Shown here piece after piece: positions 5,957-13,855 of a stretch of 64,000 nt of DNA. Each line of letters begins with the position of its first letter. Within the stretch, counting starts at the first letter, position 1. A program made the position numbers and the translations under genes. The stretch covers positions 32,001 to 96,000 of the forward strand of contig CAVSQW010000014.1 in NCBI GenBank assembly GCA_963730185.1, written 5' to 3'. Below the pieces are notes generated by a model, which worked only from the letters and a program-made list of their open reading frames with translations, was not told the DNA's origin and searched no databases. This stretch comes from an uncultured Gemmatimonadales bacterium. GTDB taxonomy: Bacteria; Gemmatimonadota; Gemmatimonadetes; Gemmatimonadales; GWC2-71-9.

Positions 5957-6460
5957 TCAGCCTCCCCCGCCGGCGCCCGGCGATCGCAGCCGGAAGTCGG
6001 TCGTGAGACCGGTGCCGTTCCGATTGCCGGCGCGGGAGCTCAGGGTGTAGGCGGTGTCGGTGACCAGCCGGAGCGCCCGCTGGTCGAACAGGAGCCGTGG
6101 CGTGCGGAGGGTGTCGCCGATCGGGGTGATGGCGGTAACGCCGCCGGAGAGCTGCACCGAATCGCCCCCGATCCGGAGCTCGCCGCGAGGGGCCGTCAGG
6201 GTCGAGACCAGCTGGCCGTCGGCCGAGAACGCGCTCAGCCGGATCTGGCGGAGATCGGCGCTGAGCGTACTCTGCGCGACGAAAACGGAGTCGGCGGTAA
6301 TCACTCCCCGGCGGCCGCCGTCGTGGGTCAGGGCATAGCTGGCGCCGAGGATCACCTGGTCGGCCCGGGCGGCGGTTGGATTGGCCGAATCGACCGGCGC
6401 GCCGACGCAGGCGGCGAGTACGCCGGCCAGCACCATCGACACGCGGCCGGGCGCGGTCAC
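5957..6460 (-). CDS. LptC-like beta-jellyroll lipoprotein
   Basis: Lipobox LAAC; ADS..V, LTA..G, V.L.G.V......GDTL.T..L..D, G.G..TD pattern typical of LptC. Confidence 0.6.
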   Translation of the reverse strand: MTAPGRVSMVLAGVLAACVGAPVDSANPTAARADQVILGASYALTHDGGRRGVITADSVFVAQSTLSADLRQIRLSAFSADGQLVSTLTAPRGELRIGGDSVQLSGGVTAITPIGDTLRTPRLLFDQRALRLVTDTAYTLSSRAGNRNGTGLTTDFRLRSPGAGGGG

Positions 6461-6672: not shown

Positions 6673-7914
6673 TCAGTCGGCCCGGCGGAACACGAGGGCG
6701 GCGTTGATCCCGCCGAACCCGAACGAGTTGCTGAGCATGAACTCGGGGTCCGCGTCGGCGCCCTCGCCGGGCGAGAAGTCGAGGTCGCAGGCGGGGTCGG
6801 GCTCGGCCAGGTTGACCGTCGGCGGGAACCACTGTCGCGACGAGGCCAGGGCGCAGATGGCGGCCTCGAAGGCACCGCTCGCCCCGAGGGCATGCCCGTA
6901 GTACCCCTTGGTGCCGCTGATCCTCACCCGGGTGGCATAGTCCTGGAAGACGGTCTTGATGGCCAGCGTCTCGGTCGGGTCGTTGAGCGAGGTCGACGAT
7001 CCGTGGGCGTTGATGTAGCCCACCTCGGTCGGCCCGAGGTGCGCTCTCCGGAGTGCCATCGCCATGGCGCGGGCCGCCTGCCGCCCGCCGGGCAGCGGAG
7101 CGGCCATGTGGTAGGCGTCGTTGGTCTGGCCATAACCCACCACCTCGGCGTAGATCTTGGCGCCCCGGGCCACGGCCCGGCTCCGCTCTTCCAGCACCAG
7201 CACGGCGCCGCCCTCTCCCATCACGAACCCGTCACGATCGCGGTCGAAGGGGCGGCTGGCGGTGCCGGGGTCGTCGTTCCGGGTGGACATCGCTCGGATC
7301 AGGGCAAAGGCACCGAAGGTGAGCGGCGCCAGCGGCGCCTCCGACCCGCCGGCCAGCATCAGGTCGGCTTCGTCGCGCTGGATGGTCCGGAAGGCCTCGC
7401 CGACCGCGATCGCCCCGGACGCGCAGCTCATGCCGTTGGTCATGTTCGGGCCGGTGATCCCGAAGTCCATCGCCAGGTTGGCGCTCGAGGCGCCGGCGAA
7501 CACGGTCAAGGCCACGCCGGGATCGACGGTCCGAATCCCGCCTTGGAGATAGCGGGTGTGCTGCTCCTCGCCGAGCGCGACGCCTCCCAGGGCGGTCCCC
7601 ATCATCACCCCGACCCGGTCGCGGTCCTCGTGGGTCAGGTCGAGCGCCGCGTCGTCGAGCGCCATGGTGCCGGCGGAGAGCGAGAACTGCGAGCAGCGAT
7701 CGAGGCGCTTGGCCCGCCGAGCACCCAGGAACTCGACCGGATTGAAGTCGTTGACCTCGGCCGCGATCCGGCTCCGGAAGGGCTCGGGGTCGAACCGGGT
7801 GATCGGGCCGACGGTCGACTTCCGGGCGCGAAGTCCCTCCCAGAGGCCCTCGACGCCCACGCCGATCGGCGTCACGGCGCCGATCCCGGTGATCACCACC
7901 CGCCGCTCAGTCAC
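6673..7914 (-). CDS. fabF: Beta-ketoacyl-ACP synthase II-like ketosynthase (FabF/KS-alpha family)
   Basis: RRVVITGIG, catalytic SCASG, INAHG and GHALGA (Cys-His-His triad), C-terminal SNSFGFGG.NA. Confidence 0.9.
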   Translation of the reverse strand: MTERRVVITGIGAVTPIGVGVEGLWEGLRARKSTVGPITRFDPEPFRSRIAAEVNDFNPVEFLGARRAKRLDRCSQFSLSAGTMALDDAALDLTHEDRDRVGVMMGTALGGVALGEEQHTRYLQGGIRTVDPGVALTVFAGASSANLAMDFGITGPNMTNGMSCASGAIAVGEAFRTIQRDEADLMLAGGSEAPLAPLTFGAFALIRAMSTRNDDPGTASRPFDRDRDGFVMGEGGAVLVLEERSRAVARGAKIYAEVVGYGQTNDAYHMAAPLPGGRQAARAMAMALRRAHLGPTEVGYINAHGSSTSLNDPTETLAIKTVFQDYATRVRISGTKGYYGHALGASGAFEAAICALASSRQWFPPTVNLAEPDPACDLDFSPGEGADADPEFMLSNSFGFGGINAALVFRRAD

Positions 7915-8371
7915 GGCTCGCCTCCGCGTAGCGCTTGATGCCGGCCAGCGTACGGGACGCAATGCCGTGGACGAAGACCGGGCCGATCACCCACTCCGCC
8001 GCGGGGCGGCGGATCAGCGGCCACGCCGGGCCGTCCCAGTCGTGAATCAGCTCGACGTGGGTTCCCCCGTCGTTCGCGGTGAGCCGCCAGACCACGTCCA
8101 TGCCTCGGGTGACGCCCCGGATGTGCCGGTACCGGACCTCGCGCGCCGGCCGGTCTACGACCATCTCCGACACCCACCAGGTCGGATACCGGACCGGGCC
8201 GAACGGCCGCCAGGCCGCCATCTCGACCACGCCTTCGACCGGGCTGGTACGGTCCAGGATCTTCACCCAGCGATAGTGGGCCAGCAGTGCCGGCCAACGC
8301 TCCACCTCGGCCGCCAGCGGAAAGACCCGCTCCGGCGGCGCGGCGATCTCGATCTCGTCGACAATTCGCAT
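7907..8371 (-). CDS. SRPBCC/START-fold polyketide cyclase/aromatase-like protein
   Basis: I.I.APPERVF.LA..VERWP..L.HYRWV, W.S, Y.H..G.T.GM.V.W; ATG overlaps the upstream stop. Confidence 0.85.
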   Translation of the reverse strand: MRIVDEIEIAAPPERVFPLAAEVERWPALLAHYRWVKILDRTSPVEGVVEMAAWRPFGPVRYPTWWVSEMVVDRPAREVRYRHIRGVTRGMDVVWRLTANDGGTHVELIHDWDGPAWPLIRRPAAEWVIGPVFVHGIASRTLAGIKRYAEASRD

Positions 8372-9090
8372 CACCCGTCCGTCCGCCAATAGGCCACGAC
8401 CCGGGCCAGGGGGCGCTTCATGACCGTCGCCTCGATGCCCTGGTGCGCCAGGAGGCGGGCCAGCCCTTCGGCGCGAAAGCCCCGCCGTATGGAGATCACG
8501 CCGTCCTCTCGAGTTGCTCGATCGAACCCAAGGACAATCGAAGCCGCCCGATAGCCCCATGCCGCCGGTTCCGACGGGCGGAGGTCCGCGATGACGACCC
8601 CCAGGCGCGACACCCGCGTTGCCTCGCGGGCCAGGGCGCCGACCCCGTCGGGACAGAGGTGGTGGGCCACTTGGCTCGCCACGGTGACGTCCACGGAGCG
8701 ATCGCGGAGCGGCAGCCGGAGCCCATCCGCGAGCACCGTCCGGAGACCCTGTCCCGACGCGGCGCGGGCGACGACCGGGTGTCGCTCGATGCCGAGCCAG
8801 TCGACCGCGACGCCCCGGGCTCCGAGCCAGGTACGAACCGCGGCCGGGATGTCGCCGAGACCGGGGCCGATGTCCAGGAGGCGGAGCCGGGCCGGCGGCG
8901 GGCACCGGTCCAGGAGCGCTCCGAGCCCGAACCGGACCGCGGCCGTCCCGCCGAAGAGCCGGTTGGCCCGGCCGATGTTCCGGATCGAGCGGAGCACCTG
9001 CGCCGGCGGGGCGTCGAGATCGTCGAGCAGCTCCTGGCCGGGGGGTGGGGGCGCCGTGGTCGGGGAGGGCAGGGATTTCTCGTCGCTCAG
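8371..9090 (-). CDS. Class I SAM-dependent methyltransferase (type often linked to type III PKS loci)
   Basis: ELLDD...I.R.NR.FGG N-terminus, LLDIG.G.GDI SAM motif, D....S..AHH, DG..SI.R.F; no clear ATG/GTG start, so the 5' end is approximate. Confidence 0.82.
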   Translation of the reverse strand: MSDEKSLPSPTTAPPPPGQELLDDLDAPPAQVLRSIRNIGRANRLFGGTAAVRFGLGALLDRCPPPARLRLLDIGPGLGDIPAAVRTWLGARGVAVDWLGIERHPVVARAASGQGLRTVLADGLRLPLRDRSVDVTVASQVAHHLCPDGVGALAREATRVSRLGVVIADLRPSEPAAWGYRAASIVLGFDRATREDGVISIRRGFRAEGLARLLAHQGIEATVMKRPLARVVAYWRTDG

Positions 9091-9563
9091 GCGAGGTAGT
9101 GGTAGCCGCCGCGGAAGTAGAGGAGCGGGCGGCCGTCGTGCACGCTGCCGCCCACCACCCGGCCGACGACCACGGTGTGGTCGCCGGCCTCGAACAAGGC
9201 GTGCCGCTCGCATTCCAGGGCGGCGATCACCCCGTCCAGCACGATCCGCCCGCCTTCCGTCCGGCGGTAGCCCACGCCGTCGAATCGCCGACGGGCGGGC
9301 CCGGCGAACCGCCGCGACAGCGCCTCCTGGTTGGTCTCGAGCACGTTGATCGCGAAGGTGTCCGCCTGCGAGATCAGCTCGTGGAACTCGGAGGCGTGGT
9401 CGATGTTGACCGAGACGAGCGGCGGGTCGAGCGACACCGAGGTGAAGCTGTTGGCGGTCATCCCCGCCGGCGAGCCGTCGCCGGCGACGGTGGTGACGAC
9501 CACCACCCCGGTGGCGTAGCGGCCGCAGAGCTGCCGGAACTGGGACGAGTCGACGTCGCTCAT
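9087..9563 (-). CDS. Flavin reductase-like protein (HpaC/NtaB family)
   Basis: ATGV.VVT, GMTANSFTSVSLDPPLV, GDH, PLLYFRG.Y. Confidence 0.92.
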   Translation of the reverse strand: MSDVDSSQFRQLCGRYATGVVVVTTVAGDGSPAGMTANSFTSVSLDPPLVSVNIDHASEFHELISQADTFAINVLETNQEALSRRFAGPARRRFDGVGYRRTEGGRIVLDGVIAALECERHALFEAGDHTVVVGRVVGGSVHDGRPLLYFRGGYHYLA

Positions 9564-9576
9564 GAATCCCCGTCGG

Positions 9577-10788
9577 TCAGAGCATCATCGCGGCCAGGAA
9601 CCCCGGCCGGAGGACATGGCTGGCGGGGACGAAGTCGCCCGTCACCCCGATCAGGGTATGGGCCAGACCGCGCCGCTCCAACCGGCCGACCGCCCGGTCG
9701 AAGAGCGCCGGCGCGAGCATGCCGTAGCCGATCATCCGTTCCACCGTCCACTTGCCCAGGAAGGCCCGGCGCCGGGCGGCGGGGTAGCCGTCGAGGCGGA
9801 GCGGACCCCCGCGGCCGGCTCGGAGGGCCTCGTCCGCCAGATCGGACGCCAGGGCGGCACCCCGGAGCGCGGCGCAGATGCCCTCCCCGGTGAAGGGGTC
9901 GAAGAAGTCGGCGGCGTCGCCCACCAAGACCGCGCCGGGGATGATAACCCGTGCCGACCGGGCCGCGAACGGTCCGGTCACCAGCACCCGCCGTACCACC
10001 CGGTCCGGGTCAATCCGGTCGCGGAGCGCAGGGAAGCTCCGGAGGGTCCGGTGGAAGAAACCCGTGGGGTCGCCGCCGGCCGTTCGGGCCAGGTGGGCCG
10101 GTACGATCGCGGCGACGTTGACCAGACCACCCCCGACGGCGTTGAGGCCCACGTATCCGGCGTCGCCCACGTGCATCTCGGCGCTGCTGGTCATGCCCCG
10201 AACGCCGGCCAGATGCGCCACGAAGCCGAACCGGGCCGGGGCGCCGTACCGCCGCCCCCCCACCTCGCGCGCGGCGACCGAGTGGAGTCCGTCCGCTCCC
10301 ACCACCAGCCGGGTCTCGATCCGGTGGGTCCGACCCTCCCGCTCCAGCACCGCGCCCCGAACCGCACCCCGGTCCCGGGTCAGGGTCCGGAGCCGGGTCC
10401 GCTCGACCACCCGAACCCCGGCCGCCCGGGCCGCGTCCACCAGGATCGCGTCGAGCGTGATCCGCCGGAGCGAGAGCCCGGTCGGGCGGAACGGTGTTAC
10501 CCCGGCCCGCGCGAACGTGCCCGTCAGCTCCGAGCCGCGGGGCCCCAGCACGCGGGCTCCGGAGAGCGGCGCGCCCCCCGCCGCCTCGACCGCGGGCAGA
10601 AGCCCCAACTGGTCCAGCTGCCGGAGGGTCTCCGGGCTCATGTACTCCGAGCACGGCTTGTCGCGGGGAAAGGTCGCCCGATCCACGGCCAGCACGTCGT
10701 GGCCTGCCCGCGCCAGACGGATCGCGGTCGCCGCCCCCGCCGGTCCGAGGCCGGCGACGAGCACGCCGGCCCGCGAGGGAAACGTCAT
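9577..10788 (-). CDS. FAD-dependent oxidoreductase, geranylgeranyl reductase family
   Basis: G.GPAG Rossmann motif, FPRDKPC.E, VGADG, LVGDAA.F.DPFTGEGI. Confidence 0.88.
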   Translation of the reverse strand: MTFPSRAGVLVAGLGPAGAATAIRLARAGHDVLAVDRATFPRDKPCSEYMSPETLRQLDQLGLLPAVEAAGGAPLSGARVLGPRGSELTGTFARAGVTPFRPTGLSLRRITLDAILVDAARAAGVRVVERTRLRTLTRDRGAVRGAVLEREGRTHRIETRLVVGADGLHSVAAREVGGRRYGAPARFGFVAHLAGVRGMTSSAEMHVGDAGYVGLNAVGGGLVNVAAIVPAHLARTAGGDPTGFFHRTLRSFPALRDRIDPDRVVRRVLVTGPFAARSARVIIPGAVLVGDAADFFDPFTGEGICAALRGAALASDLADEALRAGRGGPLRLDGYPAARRRAFLGKWTVERMIGYGMLAPALFDRAVGRLERRGLAHTLIGVTGDFVPASHVLRPGFLAAMML

Positions 10789-11195
10789 CCGAGCCGGGTG
10801 TAGTCGACACCCTCGAGCGTGAGGGTCGTGTTGCCCGTGTCGGGGAAGCTGTACGGCAGCGACGCCGTGTCCCCGGTATCGGTGTAGGTCACCTCGATCG
10901 AGGACTGCCCGACCGTGTAGGTACAATCGCGGGCGACCGTCTGCGGCACCCCGACCGAGATCGACGTCGTCGTTCGCTGGAAGTGGCAGGTGCCGCCCTG
11001 ATCGAACTGCCAGGTCGTGACCCACTCCTGCACGTCGGTGTCCACGGTCACCACGATGTCGGCCTGCCAGGTGCCGACCACCGGGGTCGGCGCCGAGGAA
11101 TGGCCGGTGGGGTTGTCGCCCGGGGCCGTGAGGTCGATGAAATCGCGGGGCTGCCCGGCACAGGCGCCCAGGAGGAGCGCCGCTACCAAAGCCAC
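10785..11195 (-). CDS. Hypothetical lipoprotein (lipocalin-like beta barrel)
   Basis: Lipobox LGAC, VVGTW motif, beta-rich with a Cys pair; overlaps both neighbours. Confidence 0.6.
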   Translation of the reverse strand: MALVAALLLGACAGQPRDFIDLTAPGDNPTGHSSAPTPVVGTWQADIVVTVDTDVQEWVTTWQFDQGGTCHFQRTTTSISVGVPQTVARDCTYTVGQSSIEVTYTDTGDTASLPYSFPDTGNTTLTLEGVDYTRLG

Positions 11196-11956
11196 CAGAC
11201 CGCGGCGAGCGCGGTCATGAGGCTCGTACTGAGCGCGTTGACGCCGTCGTTGTCCAACCATGTTGCACCTCGCTCGTGTTGGGCGGTCGTCCCGCAGCGA
11301 TGAATGCGTCGCTCGGTCGGCACCGCGCATTGCGGGCACCGGTACCGCCCCTGGACGCTGGCCCCGAGCACCGAATCCAGCAGCATCCCGGCGAAGCCGA
11401 GCGCCACCGTGGTGAGATACAGGGACCGACTTCCGCCACCAACGAGGGTCGCGGCGATGGCGACCAGGGCGGCGCCCATGAGCCCGCCACTCGTCCCGAA
11501 CCAGGAGACGCCGCCGCTGGTTCCCGGCGGCACCACCCGGCCTCTGAGGATATCCCGGGGCGGCCTCGGGCTCAAAGCCCCGAGGCTGGTGGCCCACGTA
11601 TCGGCCGACGCCGTGGCCAGCCCGACCGCGACCAGCTTGAGCCCCAACCCCGGCACCAGGGCCTCCGCCAGCGCGCCGAGGGCCGCGGCACCGCCGTTGG
11701 CGAGCACCTGCCAGTGGTCCCGGGTCTCGTCCTTGGGATCGACCGCCGATGGTCGACTGGCCGCCGCCAGCCGCCCCACGGCCGTGCTGGGCCCGAAGAA
11801 GAAGGCCAGCACCAGACCCCCGGGCCAGCCGGTTTGCCAGAGGATCAATGTCCCCACGGCCGTGGCCGCCACGGCGCCCGAGCGGGTGAGGGCGCGGGTC
11901 GCGATCCCGAGCAGCGCGACGAGGGCGGAGACTCCGAGGGCCAGTCCAATCGACAT
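11183..11956 (-). CDS. DUF92 (TMEM19/VTE6-like) membrane protein
   Basis: R...QVLANGG, ADTWATS.G, GTSGGVS..GT, DS.LGA.VQ..Y.C..C....E...H.CG, WLDND.VN. Confidence 0.9.
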   Translation of the reverse strand: MSIGLALGVSALVALLGIATRALTRSGAVAATAVGTLILWQTGWPGGLVLAFFFGPSTAVGRLAAASRPSAVDPKDETRDHWQVLANGGAAALGALAEALVPGLGLKLVAVGLATASADTWATSLGALSPRPPRDILRGRVVPPGTSGGVSWFGTSGGLMGAALVAIAATLVGGGSRSLYLTTVALGFAGMLLDSVLGASVQGRYRCPQCAVPTERRIHRCGTTAQHERGATWLDNDGVNALSTSLMTALAAVWWLW

Positions 11957-12039: not shown

Positions 12040-12660
12040 TTGACCCCGTCCGCGCACGCCATTGTTCCGCTCGCGCTGCTCGAAGCGATCCGGAACCTCG
12101 ATACGCCCATCGACGACGGTCTCGCCGAGTTGGCGGTCGAGACCGTCTCGCGGCGTCTGGGCATGAGCACCACGGTGGCCGCCCAGATCGCGCGCTATCG
12201 CGAGGCGGCGGCCAAGGACGGGTCGGTGGGGGTGGACGAGGCGGTGCAGGTGTTCCGGCTGGTGGGGAGGCGCGGCGACGCCGCCCTGGTGTACGCCGAC
12301 GCGGGCCGGCGGGCCGCCCGCCTCGCCGCCGGACGAAGAAAGCGCCCCGGCGGGCCGCTCGGCTTCCTGCTCCCGCGCGCGTTCCGACGCCGGCTGGGCG
12401 AGCGCCGGGCCGAGCGGATCGCGACCCGGGTGTTCGGTCTGGCCCTGCACCGCGAGGGATCGGCGGTGGCGCTCCGGCTCGACGAGTCCCTCGCGACCCG
12501 GGCCGGGTACGCCGACCCGGGCTGTCTCTTCTATGGCGCGCTGGTGAGCGAGCTGCTCCGCGTCACCAGCGGATTCGAAGGCGCCATGGCCCACGAGCGC
12601 TGCGTCGCCAAGGGCGACCGGGCCTGCGAGTGGCGCGCCGTCGAGGCCGAGCAGTGGTGA
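12040..12660 (+). CDS. V4R-domain protein (BchJ/XylR-sensor-like C-terminus)
   Basis: C..YG...ELL and HE.C.AKGD..CEW; GGAGG SD before TTG start. Confidence 0.7.
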   Translation: MTPSAHAIVPLALLEAIRNLDTPIDDGLAELAVETVSRRLGMSTTVAAQIARYREAAAKDGSVGVDEAVQVFRLVGRRGDAALVYADAGRRAARLAAGRRKRPGGPLGFLLPRAFRRRLGERRAERIATRVFGLALHREGSAVALRLDESLATRAGYADPGCLFYGALVSELLRVTSGFEGAMAHERCVAKGDRACEWRAVEAEQW

Positions 12661-12676
12661 ACCACACTCAACCAGG

Positions 12677-13855
12677 GTGGCGACGATGAAGAGCCTGGAC
12701 CGGGCCGGCATCCGTACCGGCCTCGAGGCCGCCGGGGCCGACGGCTGGCTGTTGTTCGACTTCAAGGGCACCAACCCCGTGGCCCTCCGGCTCCTGGGGC
12801 TGGCGCCCGGAACCCGGCGAATCTTCGTGTACGTGCCGCGCGAGGGCGAGGCGGTGGCGATCGCCCATAAGATCGAGCTGGGCTCGGTCGAGGGGTTCGA
12901 GGGGAAAGTGCTGCCGTACGCCCGCTGGGAGGAGCTCGACGCCGCCCTCGCCGCGACGGTCCGCGGCAAGACGGTCGCCATGGAGGTCTCGGCCCGCGAC
13001 GCCGTGCCCTACCTCGACCGGATCCCGAGCGGCGTGGTGCAGCTGGTCGAGGCCGCCGGCGCCACCATCGTCTCGAGCGCGGCCCTGGTCACCCGGCTCA
13101 CCGCCGTCTGGCAGCCGAGCGAAGCTCGCGATCACATCGAGGCCGCCGAGATTCTGGCCCGGGTGGCCAAGCGGATCATGGCCGAGGTGATTCAGGAGGC
13201 CGGGCGGGCGACCGAGGCCGGGGTCCAGGCCCGGGTGATCGAGGCGCTGGAGCGGGACGGCCTGGCGGTCAATCGCGACCACCTGCTGCCGATCGTCGGC
13301 TTCGGGCCCAACGCCGCCAACCCCCATTACGAGCCGGTCGCCGGACGGGACCGGACCCTGGCCCCGAACGAGGTGGTCCTGATCGATCTCTTCGCCGGCA
13401 AGTCTCTCGAGACTGTCTTTGCCGACCAGACCTGGATGGGCTTCAGCGGGTCCCAGCCGCCGGATGAGGTCGCCCGGGTCTGGACCATCGTCCGCGATGC
13501 CCGGGACGCCGCCCTGGATGCCGTGTGGGACGCGGCCCGCGCCGGACGTCCCATAAGAGGGTACGAGATCGATCGGGCGGCCCGGGGCGTCATCGAGGCC
13601 GCTGGCTACGGCGACTACTTCGTCCACCGGACCGGCCACTCGATCGACCTCGACCTCCACGGCTCCGGCCCGCATTGCGACGACTACGAGACCCGGGACG
13701 ACCGCGAAGTCATTCCCGGTGTCGGATTTTCGGTCGAGCCTGGGATCTACTTGCCCGGGCGCTTCGGAGTTCGGAGCGAAGTGAACATTTACTGGGCCCC
13801 GGAGGGCCCACGGGTGACGCCGGCCGAGCCACAGCGGGAGCTCATCCTGCTCTGA
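12677..13855 (+). CDS. M24 family Xaa-Pro aminopeptidase
   Basis: NPHY, LIDL, AD.T, HRTGHSI, FSVEPGIY, GVRSE metal-binding motifs. Confidence 0.92.
   Translation: MATMKSLDRAGIRTGLEAAGADGWLLFDFKGTNPVALRLLGLAPGTRRIFVYVPREGEAVAIAHKIELGSVEGFEGKVLPYARWEELDAALAATVRGKTVAMEVSARDAVPYLDRIPSGVVQLVEAAGATIVSSAALVTRLTAVWQPSEARDHIEAAEILARVAKRIMAEVIQEAGRATEAGVQARVIEALERDGLAVNRDHLLPIVGFGPNAANPHYEPVAGRDRTLAPNEVVLIDLFAGKSLETVFADQTWMGFSGSQPPDEVARVWTIVRDARDAALDAVWDAARAGRPIRGYEIDRAARGVIEAAGYGDYFVHRTGHSIDLDLHGSGPHCDDYETRDDREVIPGVGFSVEPGIYLPGRFGVRSEVNIYWAPEGPRVTPAEPQRELILL

Follow-up and report, generated by a model that had tools for sequence, protein, structure and literature searches.

What does a stand-alone ketosynthase (KS) do in an operon that places it behind a cyclase-like protein, a methyltransferase (MT) and flavin enzymes? 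The question is raised by a 64,000-nucleotide stretch of DNA, here called the window, from an uncultured Gemmatimonadales bacterium of lineage GWC2-71-9 (assembly GCA_963730185.1, contig CAVSQW010000014.1, positions 32,001 to 96,000). Running from position 11956 to 6673 on the minus strand we found all seven of the open reading frames that an initial annotation had described as co-oriented and coupled, overlapping or abutting with successive gaps of -13, -4, +13, -4, -1 and -8 nt from the DUF92 gene to the KS gene. The names of the nearest database homologues likewise point to Gemmatimonadales as the window's source. The reading we favour, at a probability of roughly 60% and on sequence evidence, is that the KS, which belongs to a clade of its own, and an aromatase/cyclase-like SRPBCC protein together do the job of a type III polyketide synthase (PKS), and that the product would be a methylated and hydroxylated alkylresorcinol or alkylquinone lipid.

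The KS gene (7914-6673, minus strand) encodes the full Cys-His-His triad that had been claimed for it (Cys164, His304 and His341), and family scans place the protein with FabF/KAS II, not KAS III. Its TIGR03150 score of 505.9 bits lies narrowly above the 493.75 cut-off, and the initial annotation had named a sole genomic copy as a sign of the housekeeping FabF. The KS is indeed the sole FabF-like gene in the window's genome assembly, yet this only reflects the lack of the entire fab operon there: the assembly is 81.8% complete, no acyl carrier protein (ACP), FabD, PlsX or second KS was found anywhere in it, and it retains only distant FabH and FabG paralogues. Most likely the fab operon failed to assemble. 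The lack of ACP and fabD genes near the KS, which had been put forward as a clue, was therefore confirmed as an observation, but because the assembly is incomplete it is no evidence on the pathway. The separate fab operon that we sought was absent from the window's assembly and present in relatives. A KS orthologue was found in 36 of 40 relatives (59-80% identity), and 39 of the 40 carry a second FabF-like copy with 42-50% identity to the window KS, three of these copies being partial. All six of the second-copy loci scanned are fab operons with plsX, fabH, fabD, fabG and acpP as neighbours; in four of these loci all six genes were submitted and matched, and in the other two one gene each was unsubmitted. 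On TIGR03150 the fab-operon KSs score 592-652 bits, against 490-520 bits for the operon KS clade. With these second copies, the lower scores and the trees described below, identity with the housekeeping FabF was rejected.

Phylogeny of the KS was examined with a quick tree (LG+G4, 53 sequences) and a mixture-model tree (33 sequences). The trees hold 20 operon KSs, 14 from Gemmatimonadota, five from Paenibacillaceae and one other, with an 11-sequence subset in the mixture-model tree, and the reference KSs, with no DarB among them, were taken from plasmid records and assigned a type from annotation and neighbouring genes. In both trees the operon KSs form one clade outside FabF, with a support of 99 by the SH-like approximate likelihood ratio test (SH-aLRT) in the quick tree and 96/98 in the mixture-model tree. 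The quick tree makes this clade sister to KSalpha plus the chain-length factor (CLF) with 96 SH-aLRT, and in the mixture-model tree a long-branched KS of the aryl-polyene type groups with the clade, whose placement has support (92/87) only for the split from FabF/NodE. The comparison with FabF, KSalpha and DarB that had been suggested for this KS thus upholds a separate clade as far as FabF is concerned; DarB was not among the sequences, and the sister relation to KSalpha plus CLF differs between the two trees.

The operon KSs are 44-48% identical to FabF, and basic residues at positions 65, 68, 69, 127 and 206 (E. coli FabF numbering, used throughout this paragraph) are kept in most or all of them; the portion of PMC7138838 available to us lists basic residues at these positions as ACP contacts. 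The clade also keeps the GFGG motif, Asp265 and Asn404. In all 20 sequences the acyl pocket is bulkier than that of FabF, with G107 replaced by Ala, I108 by Leu and I138 by Phe. Ala107, Pro193, Ser305, Asn310 and, in most sequences, Ile205 are KSalpha-like, Phe138 and Ala201 are common to the clade and CLFs, and Leu108 is also present, with the caveat that only four KSalpha and four CLF rows entered this comparison. Each operon locus holds a single KS.

The SRPBCC gene (8371-7907, minus strand; PF10604/PF03364) lies directly upstream. WhiE-ORFVI, TcmN and BexL head the matches of the sequence-profile search (E 1e-12 to 1e-6) as well as those of the fold search, and the predicted helix-grip fold (predicted local distance difference test score 87.9) superimposes on TcmN/WhiE-type structures with template modelling (TM) scores of 0.77-0.80. 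The match to 1t17, which we take to be Coq10-like, is far weaker than those to the aromatase/cyclases (E 2e-4). TcmN residues W28, Y35, W63, W65, S67, M91 and W95 are kept in the SRPBCC protein. Of the seven pocket residues of TcmN (W28, F32, W65, S67, R69, M91 and W95) five are retained, as W26, W66, S68, M91 and W95, with F32 replaced by Leu and R69 by Met. His32, Arg34, Arg55, His83 and His110 are invariant in 19 Gemmatimonadota rows, and the protein may be related to TcmN and work with other catalytic residues, as could be true of a cyclase that closes one ring. A predicted complex of the KS dimer with the SRPBCC protein scored 0.00, which counts for neither side.

To define the operon we surveyed 80 GTDB loci, all from Gemmatimonadota and close kin, since they are the 80 top-ranking loci among 560 confirmed; the denominator for each gene is the number of loci with enough DNA. 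The SRPBCC gene immediately precedes the KS gene in 78/78 loci. The gene for the flavin adenine dinucleotide (FAD)-dependent enzyme (10788-9577, minus strand; PF01494, of the geranylgeranyl reductase (GGR)/halogenase/hydroxylase fold) is present in 65/65, and that for the S-adenosylmethionine (SAM)-dependent MT (9090-8371, minus strand; PRK06202-like at E 3e-24, below the cut-off, with a probable CTG start codon) in 66/74. The remaining three genes are a flavin reductase of the HpaC/FerA type (9563-9087, minus strand; PF01613), found in 63/65 loci, a DUF92 integral membrane protein of 257 amino acids (11956-11183, minus strand; PF01940, E 4e-55), found in 49/54, and an optional small lipoprotein of 136 amino acids with an LLGAC lipobox (11195-10785, minus strand), found in 16/54. 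Neither an ACP, with the fab-operon ACP as query and 5 kb of upstream DNA included, nor a type III PKS was found in any of 54 loci. The order of the operon is shared by three families of the order, and in other orders of the class it reads MT-FAD-SRPBCC-KS (L119-121, L125 and also L129), with no match to flavin reductase or DUF92. Locus L146 (G061) was excluded for its many frameshifts. The gene order is thus conserved in relatives, as the initial annotation expected, and its preservation across three families of the order and 80 further loci is far beyond chance. However, the seven genes are not one fixed unit: the core is SRPBCC-KS plus the FAD enzyme and, usually, the MT, and the lipoprotein, DUF92 and flavin reductase are add-ons of Gemmatimonadales. 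A scan for promoters and terminators gave no signal above shuffled sequence.

The system also reaches beyond the phylum. A profile search of 1.84 billion representative sequences matched 414 relatives at a threshold of E 1e-10, and among the 20 of these that were looked up, the named ones belong to Paenibacillus and Chloroflexota. Paenibacillus sp. BIHB 4019 (CP016808.1, L239) carries MT-FAD-SRPBCC-KS, the same arrangement is found in 19/19 further Paenibacillaceae loci, and P. catalpae has an SRPBCC homologue. DUF92 and flavin reductase were not seen in the Paenibacillus operons, and no ACP was called in L239 or in L240, the locus of a genome where the gene for an FAD-SRPBCC fusion protein immediately precedes a KS gene of this clade. 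An MT-SRPBCC fusion protein exists as well. The SRPBCC search of plasmids returned no match. In L240 the FAD-SRPBCC fusion is preceded by a small ferredoxin gene (L240:7741-7992), in the place taken by a flavin reductase in other lineages.

It had been predicted that homologous MT and FAD enzyme pairs would alternate between SRPBCC-KS and type III PKS, and the distribution bears this out. A search of plasmids with the MT gave 27 matches, and the three that were opened (Sphingobium indicum, Deinococcus psychrotolerans and P. cellulosilyticus) all have a type III PKS and an FAD enzyme as neighbours. Of 201 Gemmatimonadota genomes (one of them, G179, unpublished), 138 carry the SRPBCC gene, 137 the MT and eight a type III PKS. 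The window's genome holds only a weak, partial and FabH-like PF00195 match elsewhere (E 1e-4). The KS is lacking in four relatives: three that share the window's genus carry MT-FAD-type III PKS, and the fourth has neither. Among 201 Paenibacillaceae genomes, 25 carry the SRPBCC gene, the same 25 carry its MT, and 87 carry a type III PKS (E 1e-15). No genome holds both, where 10.8 would be expected (hypergeometric P 1.9e-7, a value that presumes independent genomes, which Paenibacillaceae, being kin, are not), and the two forms are mutually exclusive in this family. A looser type III PKS search of the 25 gave only partial matches of 21-32 bits in 13 of them, four barely above the Pfam cut-off, and at least two of these matches are probably FabH, as they adjoin the housekeeping fabF. 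Of 20 type III PKS loci from 19 Paenibacillaceae genomes, 15 have both MT and FAD enzyme, one has the MT only and four have neither. On an rpoB tree of 60 genomes (the full 25 of KS type, 35 from the 87 that carry a type III PKS and none from the 89 lacking both) the system label switches six times, and at least five switches are forced by well-supported branches. A paired-trait test is circular on such a set, as genomes entered it by carrying one system or the other, and is not used here.

The FAD enzymes linked to type III PKS are 27-34% identical to that of the window (E 4e-5 to 7e-28) and in a quick tree they nest among the KS-type ones, though the MT and FAD genes of both operon types form largely separate, weakly resolved lineages. 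No in-place swap of the synthase at a single chromosomal site was found among the Paenibacillus loci compared. Since these lineages are largely separate and the loci of the two types have no flanking gene in common at 45% identity or above, the exchange is one of whole operons. Some Paenibacillaceae operons of the order type III PKS-MT-FAD (L411, L416 and L420) are followed by a FabF-type KS outside this clade.

From these genes, residues, trees and distributions we infer the following chemistry. Acyl-ACP and malonyl-ACP would be borrowed from the separate fab operon, a step supported by the fab operon of the relatives and the ACP-binding basic residues of the KS. The homodimeric KS would then carry out about three rounds of extension on the acyl chain, none of them followed by reduction, and the chain would probably be released between rounds, since the KS keeps the Asp266/Asn404 gate. 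The SRPBCC protein could shelter the resulting poly-beta-keto chain and close and aromatize one ring to give an alkylresorcylic acid or 5-alkylresorcinol. By analogy with characterized homologous operons, the MT would methylate and the FAD enzyme hydroxylate the ring, with the flavin reductase, where present, supplying reduced flavin.

The closest known systems are hidABC, for hierridins in Cyanobium, and the mtr-fdo-t3pks operons of planctomycetes, here taken from the parts of PMC10896814, PMC6836626 and PMC8086630 that could be consulted. In these, as in the order MT-FAD-SRPBCC-KS, a SAM-dependent MT and an FAD oxidoreductase are followed by a ring-forming synthase, and the operon carries no ACP. 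Methylation and hydroxylation have been proposed for HidA and HidB (PMC6836626, in part), and for the Gimesia enzymes the consulted sections of PMC10896814 describe a single methylation and leave the role of the FAD enzyme unresolved. It is important to note that homology of the tailoring enzymes was examined with MT and FAD genes linked to type III PKS in other bacteria. The difference is that the type III PKS is replaced by two proteins, an elongation-type KS and an SRPBCC protein, and that in Gemmatimonadales the operon also includes flavin reductase, DUF92 and, in some cases, a lipoprotein or B12 radical SAM gene. The operon would work like the hidABC type, yet is no member of it, having no type III PKS. 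Nor is it an aromatic type II PKS, as it has neither a CLF nor an ACP, even though its KS is of the same structural family with KSalpha-type A108, P194, I206, S306 and N311, and its SRPBCC protein is most like TcmN/WhiE; the KS has an Asp gate that KSalpha does not have, and the cyclase has no Arg69 or Arg82. With FabF the KS shares the triad, the ACP-binding basic patch and the gate of GFGG, Asp265 and Asn404, but it forms a separate clade at a separate locus, with a reshaped acyl pocket, and always stands behind an SRPBCC gene. A full-text literature search, with subscription papers mostly outside its scope, returned no title or abstract opening on a KS and SRPBCC operon with these tailoring genes; the supplements of PMC10896814, PMC8086630 and PMC13685256, which could list such clusters, also lie outside it, and the part of PMC13685256 that was available mentions no such system.

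Several observations weigh against the KS and SRPBCC protein standing in for a type III PKS. No product has been observed. The gate residue Asp266 is present in 20/20 KS sequences, where KSalpha has Asn; as far as the sections of PMC7138838 at hand go, Asp265 goes with enzymes that let go of the substrate after each condensation, and Asn with KSalpha, which retains the chain, so iteration inside the pocket in the manner of KSalpha is not indicated. In the SRPBCC protein only the tyrosine (Y33) is kept of the residues Y35, R69, R82, W108 and Q110, given as essential in TcmN in the accessible part of a preprint (bioRxiv 10.64898/2026.02.27.708631), the others being Met70, His83, Leu108 and His110. 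The best PDB matches of the FAD protein are halogenases and geranylgeranyl reductase, and the MTs linked to type III PKS are only 25-32% identical to that of the window (E 1e-5 to 1e-20). The flanks of 20 KS-type and 21 type III PKS-type Paenibacillus loci have no common gene at 45% identity or above. One Gemmatimonadota genome (G030) holds both systems, and exclusion is not absolute there. One genus has SRPBCC-KS in 8/8 genomes and the MT in 0/8; this genus, together with G084, carries DUF92-FAD-flavin reductase-SRPBCC-KS without the MT (L139-L143). Three genomes (G209, G132 and G224; L144, L145 and L147) have MT-FAD, and neither type of synthase was found in them.

A bolder reading would make the operon a minimal, "proto-type II" PKS, in which a homodimeric KS from near the base of the KSalpha/CLF split, together with a single cyclase of the TcmN type and cellular ACP, produces single-ring aromatic lipids; we put this forward tentatively, as a minority possibility. 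If true, bacteria would have a third way to make phenolic lipids, in addition to type III PKS and DarAB. Most Gemmatimonadales would carry it, in Paenibacillus it would be exchanged for type III PKS, and it would offer a living model of the stage that preceded the KS-CLF duplication.

Departing further, the KS might be an elongase for an unusual, non-aromatic acyl chain and the SRPBCC protein a lipid or quinone carrier of the Coq10/RatA type, with the MT and FAD enzyme modifying the chain or an existing quinone. The KS is barely above the FabF cut-off and keeps the FabF gate, RatA is the JGI automatic name of many of the SRPBCC homologues, the catalytic arginines of TcmN are replaced, and the FAD protein resembles the GGR/MenJ families (117.6 bits on TIGR02032, under the 158.8 cut-off), all of which fit. 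Against this, aromatase/cyclase matches rank above other SRPBCC structures, neither a reductase nor a dehydratase was called next to the KS in the operons of Paenibacillus or G226, and the exclusion of type III PKS and the common MT-FAD pair would go unexplained; we consider an elongase unlikely.

A comparison with DarAB, BrtCD and StlCD is also warranted, as they too pair a KS with an aromatase. DarB has a FabH-like fold. A DarB/DarA-like pair would join a beta-ketoacyl to an enoyl thioester in a single head-to-head condensation, and aromatization would give a dialkylresorcinol for the MT and FAD enzyme to tailor. One condensation would suit a KS from which the product is released in every round, and the DarAB architecture may likewise come without an ACP, since some such clusters are thought to borrow primary acyl-ACP (PMC6836626, in the part consulted). 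The same part presents DarB as a separate class, a non-elongating head-to-head condensing enzyme that has lost elongation, whereas the operon KS is a Cys-His-His enzyme of the elongation type from the FabF/KSalpha family and travels with tailoring genes of the HidA/HidB type. No DarA or StlC entry was among the SRPBCC matches, and the operon with which this one alternates makes monoalkylresorcinols, which renders the DarAB-like scheme improbable.

The bulkier acyl pocket of all 20 KSs would also suit a short primer, from which a small aromatic head of the orsellinate or orcinol type could be made, methylated and hydroxylated, and later prenylated with a polyprenyl diphosphate supplied by DUF92. 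VTE6 and DUF92 are linked with kinase activity, and of 54 Gemmatimonadales loci, 49 have DUF92 as the first gene of the operon. With that said, no prenyltransferase was seen beside a KS-type operon and no DUF92 in the Paenibacillus or other-order operons, so a prenylated head appears quite unlikely, and the tie to isoprenoid phosphate metabolism that had been suggested for DUF92 finds little support. Least of all do we expect a housekeeping FabF displaced from its fab operon, despite its standing alone in the assembly and its narrow pass of TIGR03150, as PlsX, FabD and ACP are equally missing from this 82% assembly and the relatives' second copies, their scores and both trees set the KS apart.

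Should the KS and SRPBCC protein indeed replace a type III PKS, the operon would represent an unrecognized bacterial route to aromatic lipids, annotated as "fabF" and missed by the rules for type III and type II PKS. It occurs in 138 of the 201 genomes sampled from a soil phylum that is abundant and whose chemistry has been little studied, and in 25 of 201 Paenibacillaceae, and as named isolates such as Paenibacillus sp. BIHB 4019 carry the system, direct testing is possible. It bears on the origin of aromatic type II PKS from a homodimeric FabF-like ancestor, and on whether a cyclase can stand in for a CLF in the control of a short poly-beta-keto chain.

A few further features of these loci were recorded. 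The WxWxIP motif, which we take to be that of flavin-dependent halogenases, does not occur in the translation of the FAD protein. A B12-binding radical SAM gene lies between the DUF92 and FAD genes in three relatives and beside a displaced MT in a fourth (L045:8047-9537, L050:3719-5176, L069:3738-5201 and L154:6825-8387), and its insertion possibly adds a methylation step. The second operon of the genome with both systems (L148:4198-8185) consists of a cis-prenyltransferase, an unknown gene, a type III PKS and an MT. Two genomes (G189 and G140) keep the SRPBCC gene and have no KS orthologue, and G189 has MT-type III PKS; orphan SRPBCC genes (L124:4379-4831 and L127:4420-4863), in genomes without a KS orthologue, adjoin a DUF4126-like gene and a sigma factor. 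Divergent from the operon in the window and in most relatives are a Gemmatimonadota V4R-like gene (12040-12660, plus strand), a neighbour in 52/54 loci whose membership of the pathway is not implied, and an M24 peptidase gene (12677-13855, plus strand). Downstream of the KS, an LptC-like gene (5957-6433, minus strand) follows on the same strand and is absent at that spot in the relatives' loci, and in some relatives the KS is followed by aquaporin-type or cytochrome c assembly genes (L046:9399-10067, L051:3170-3934, L039:2645-3328 and L044:9528-10226).

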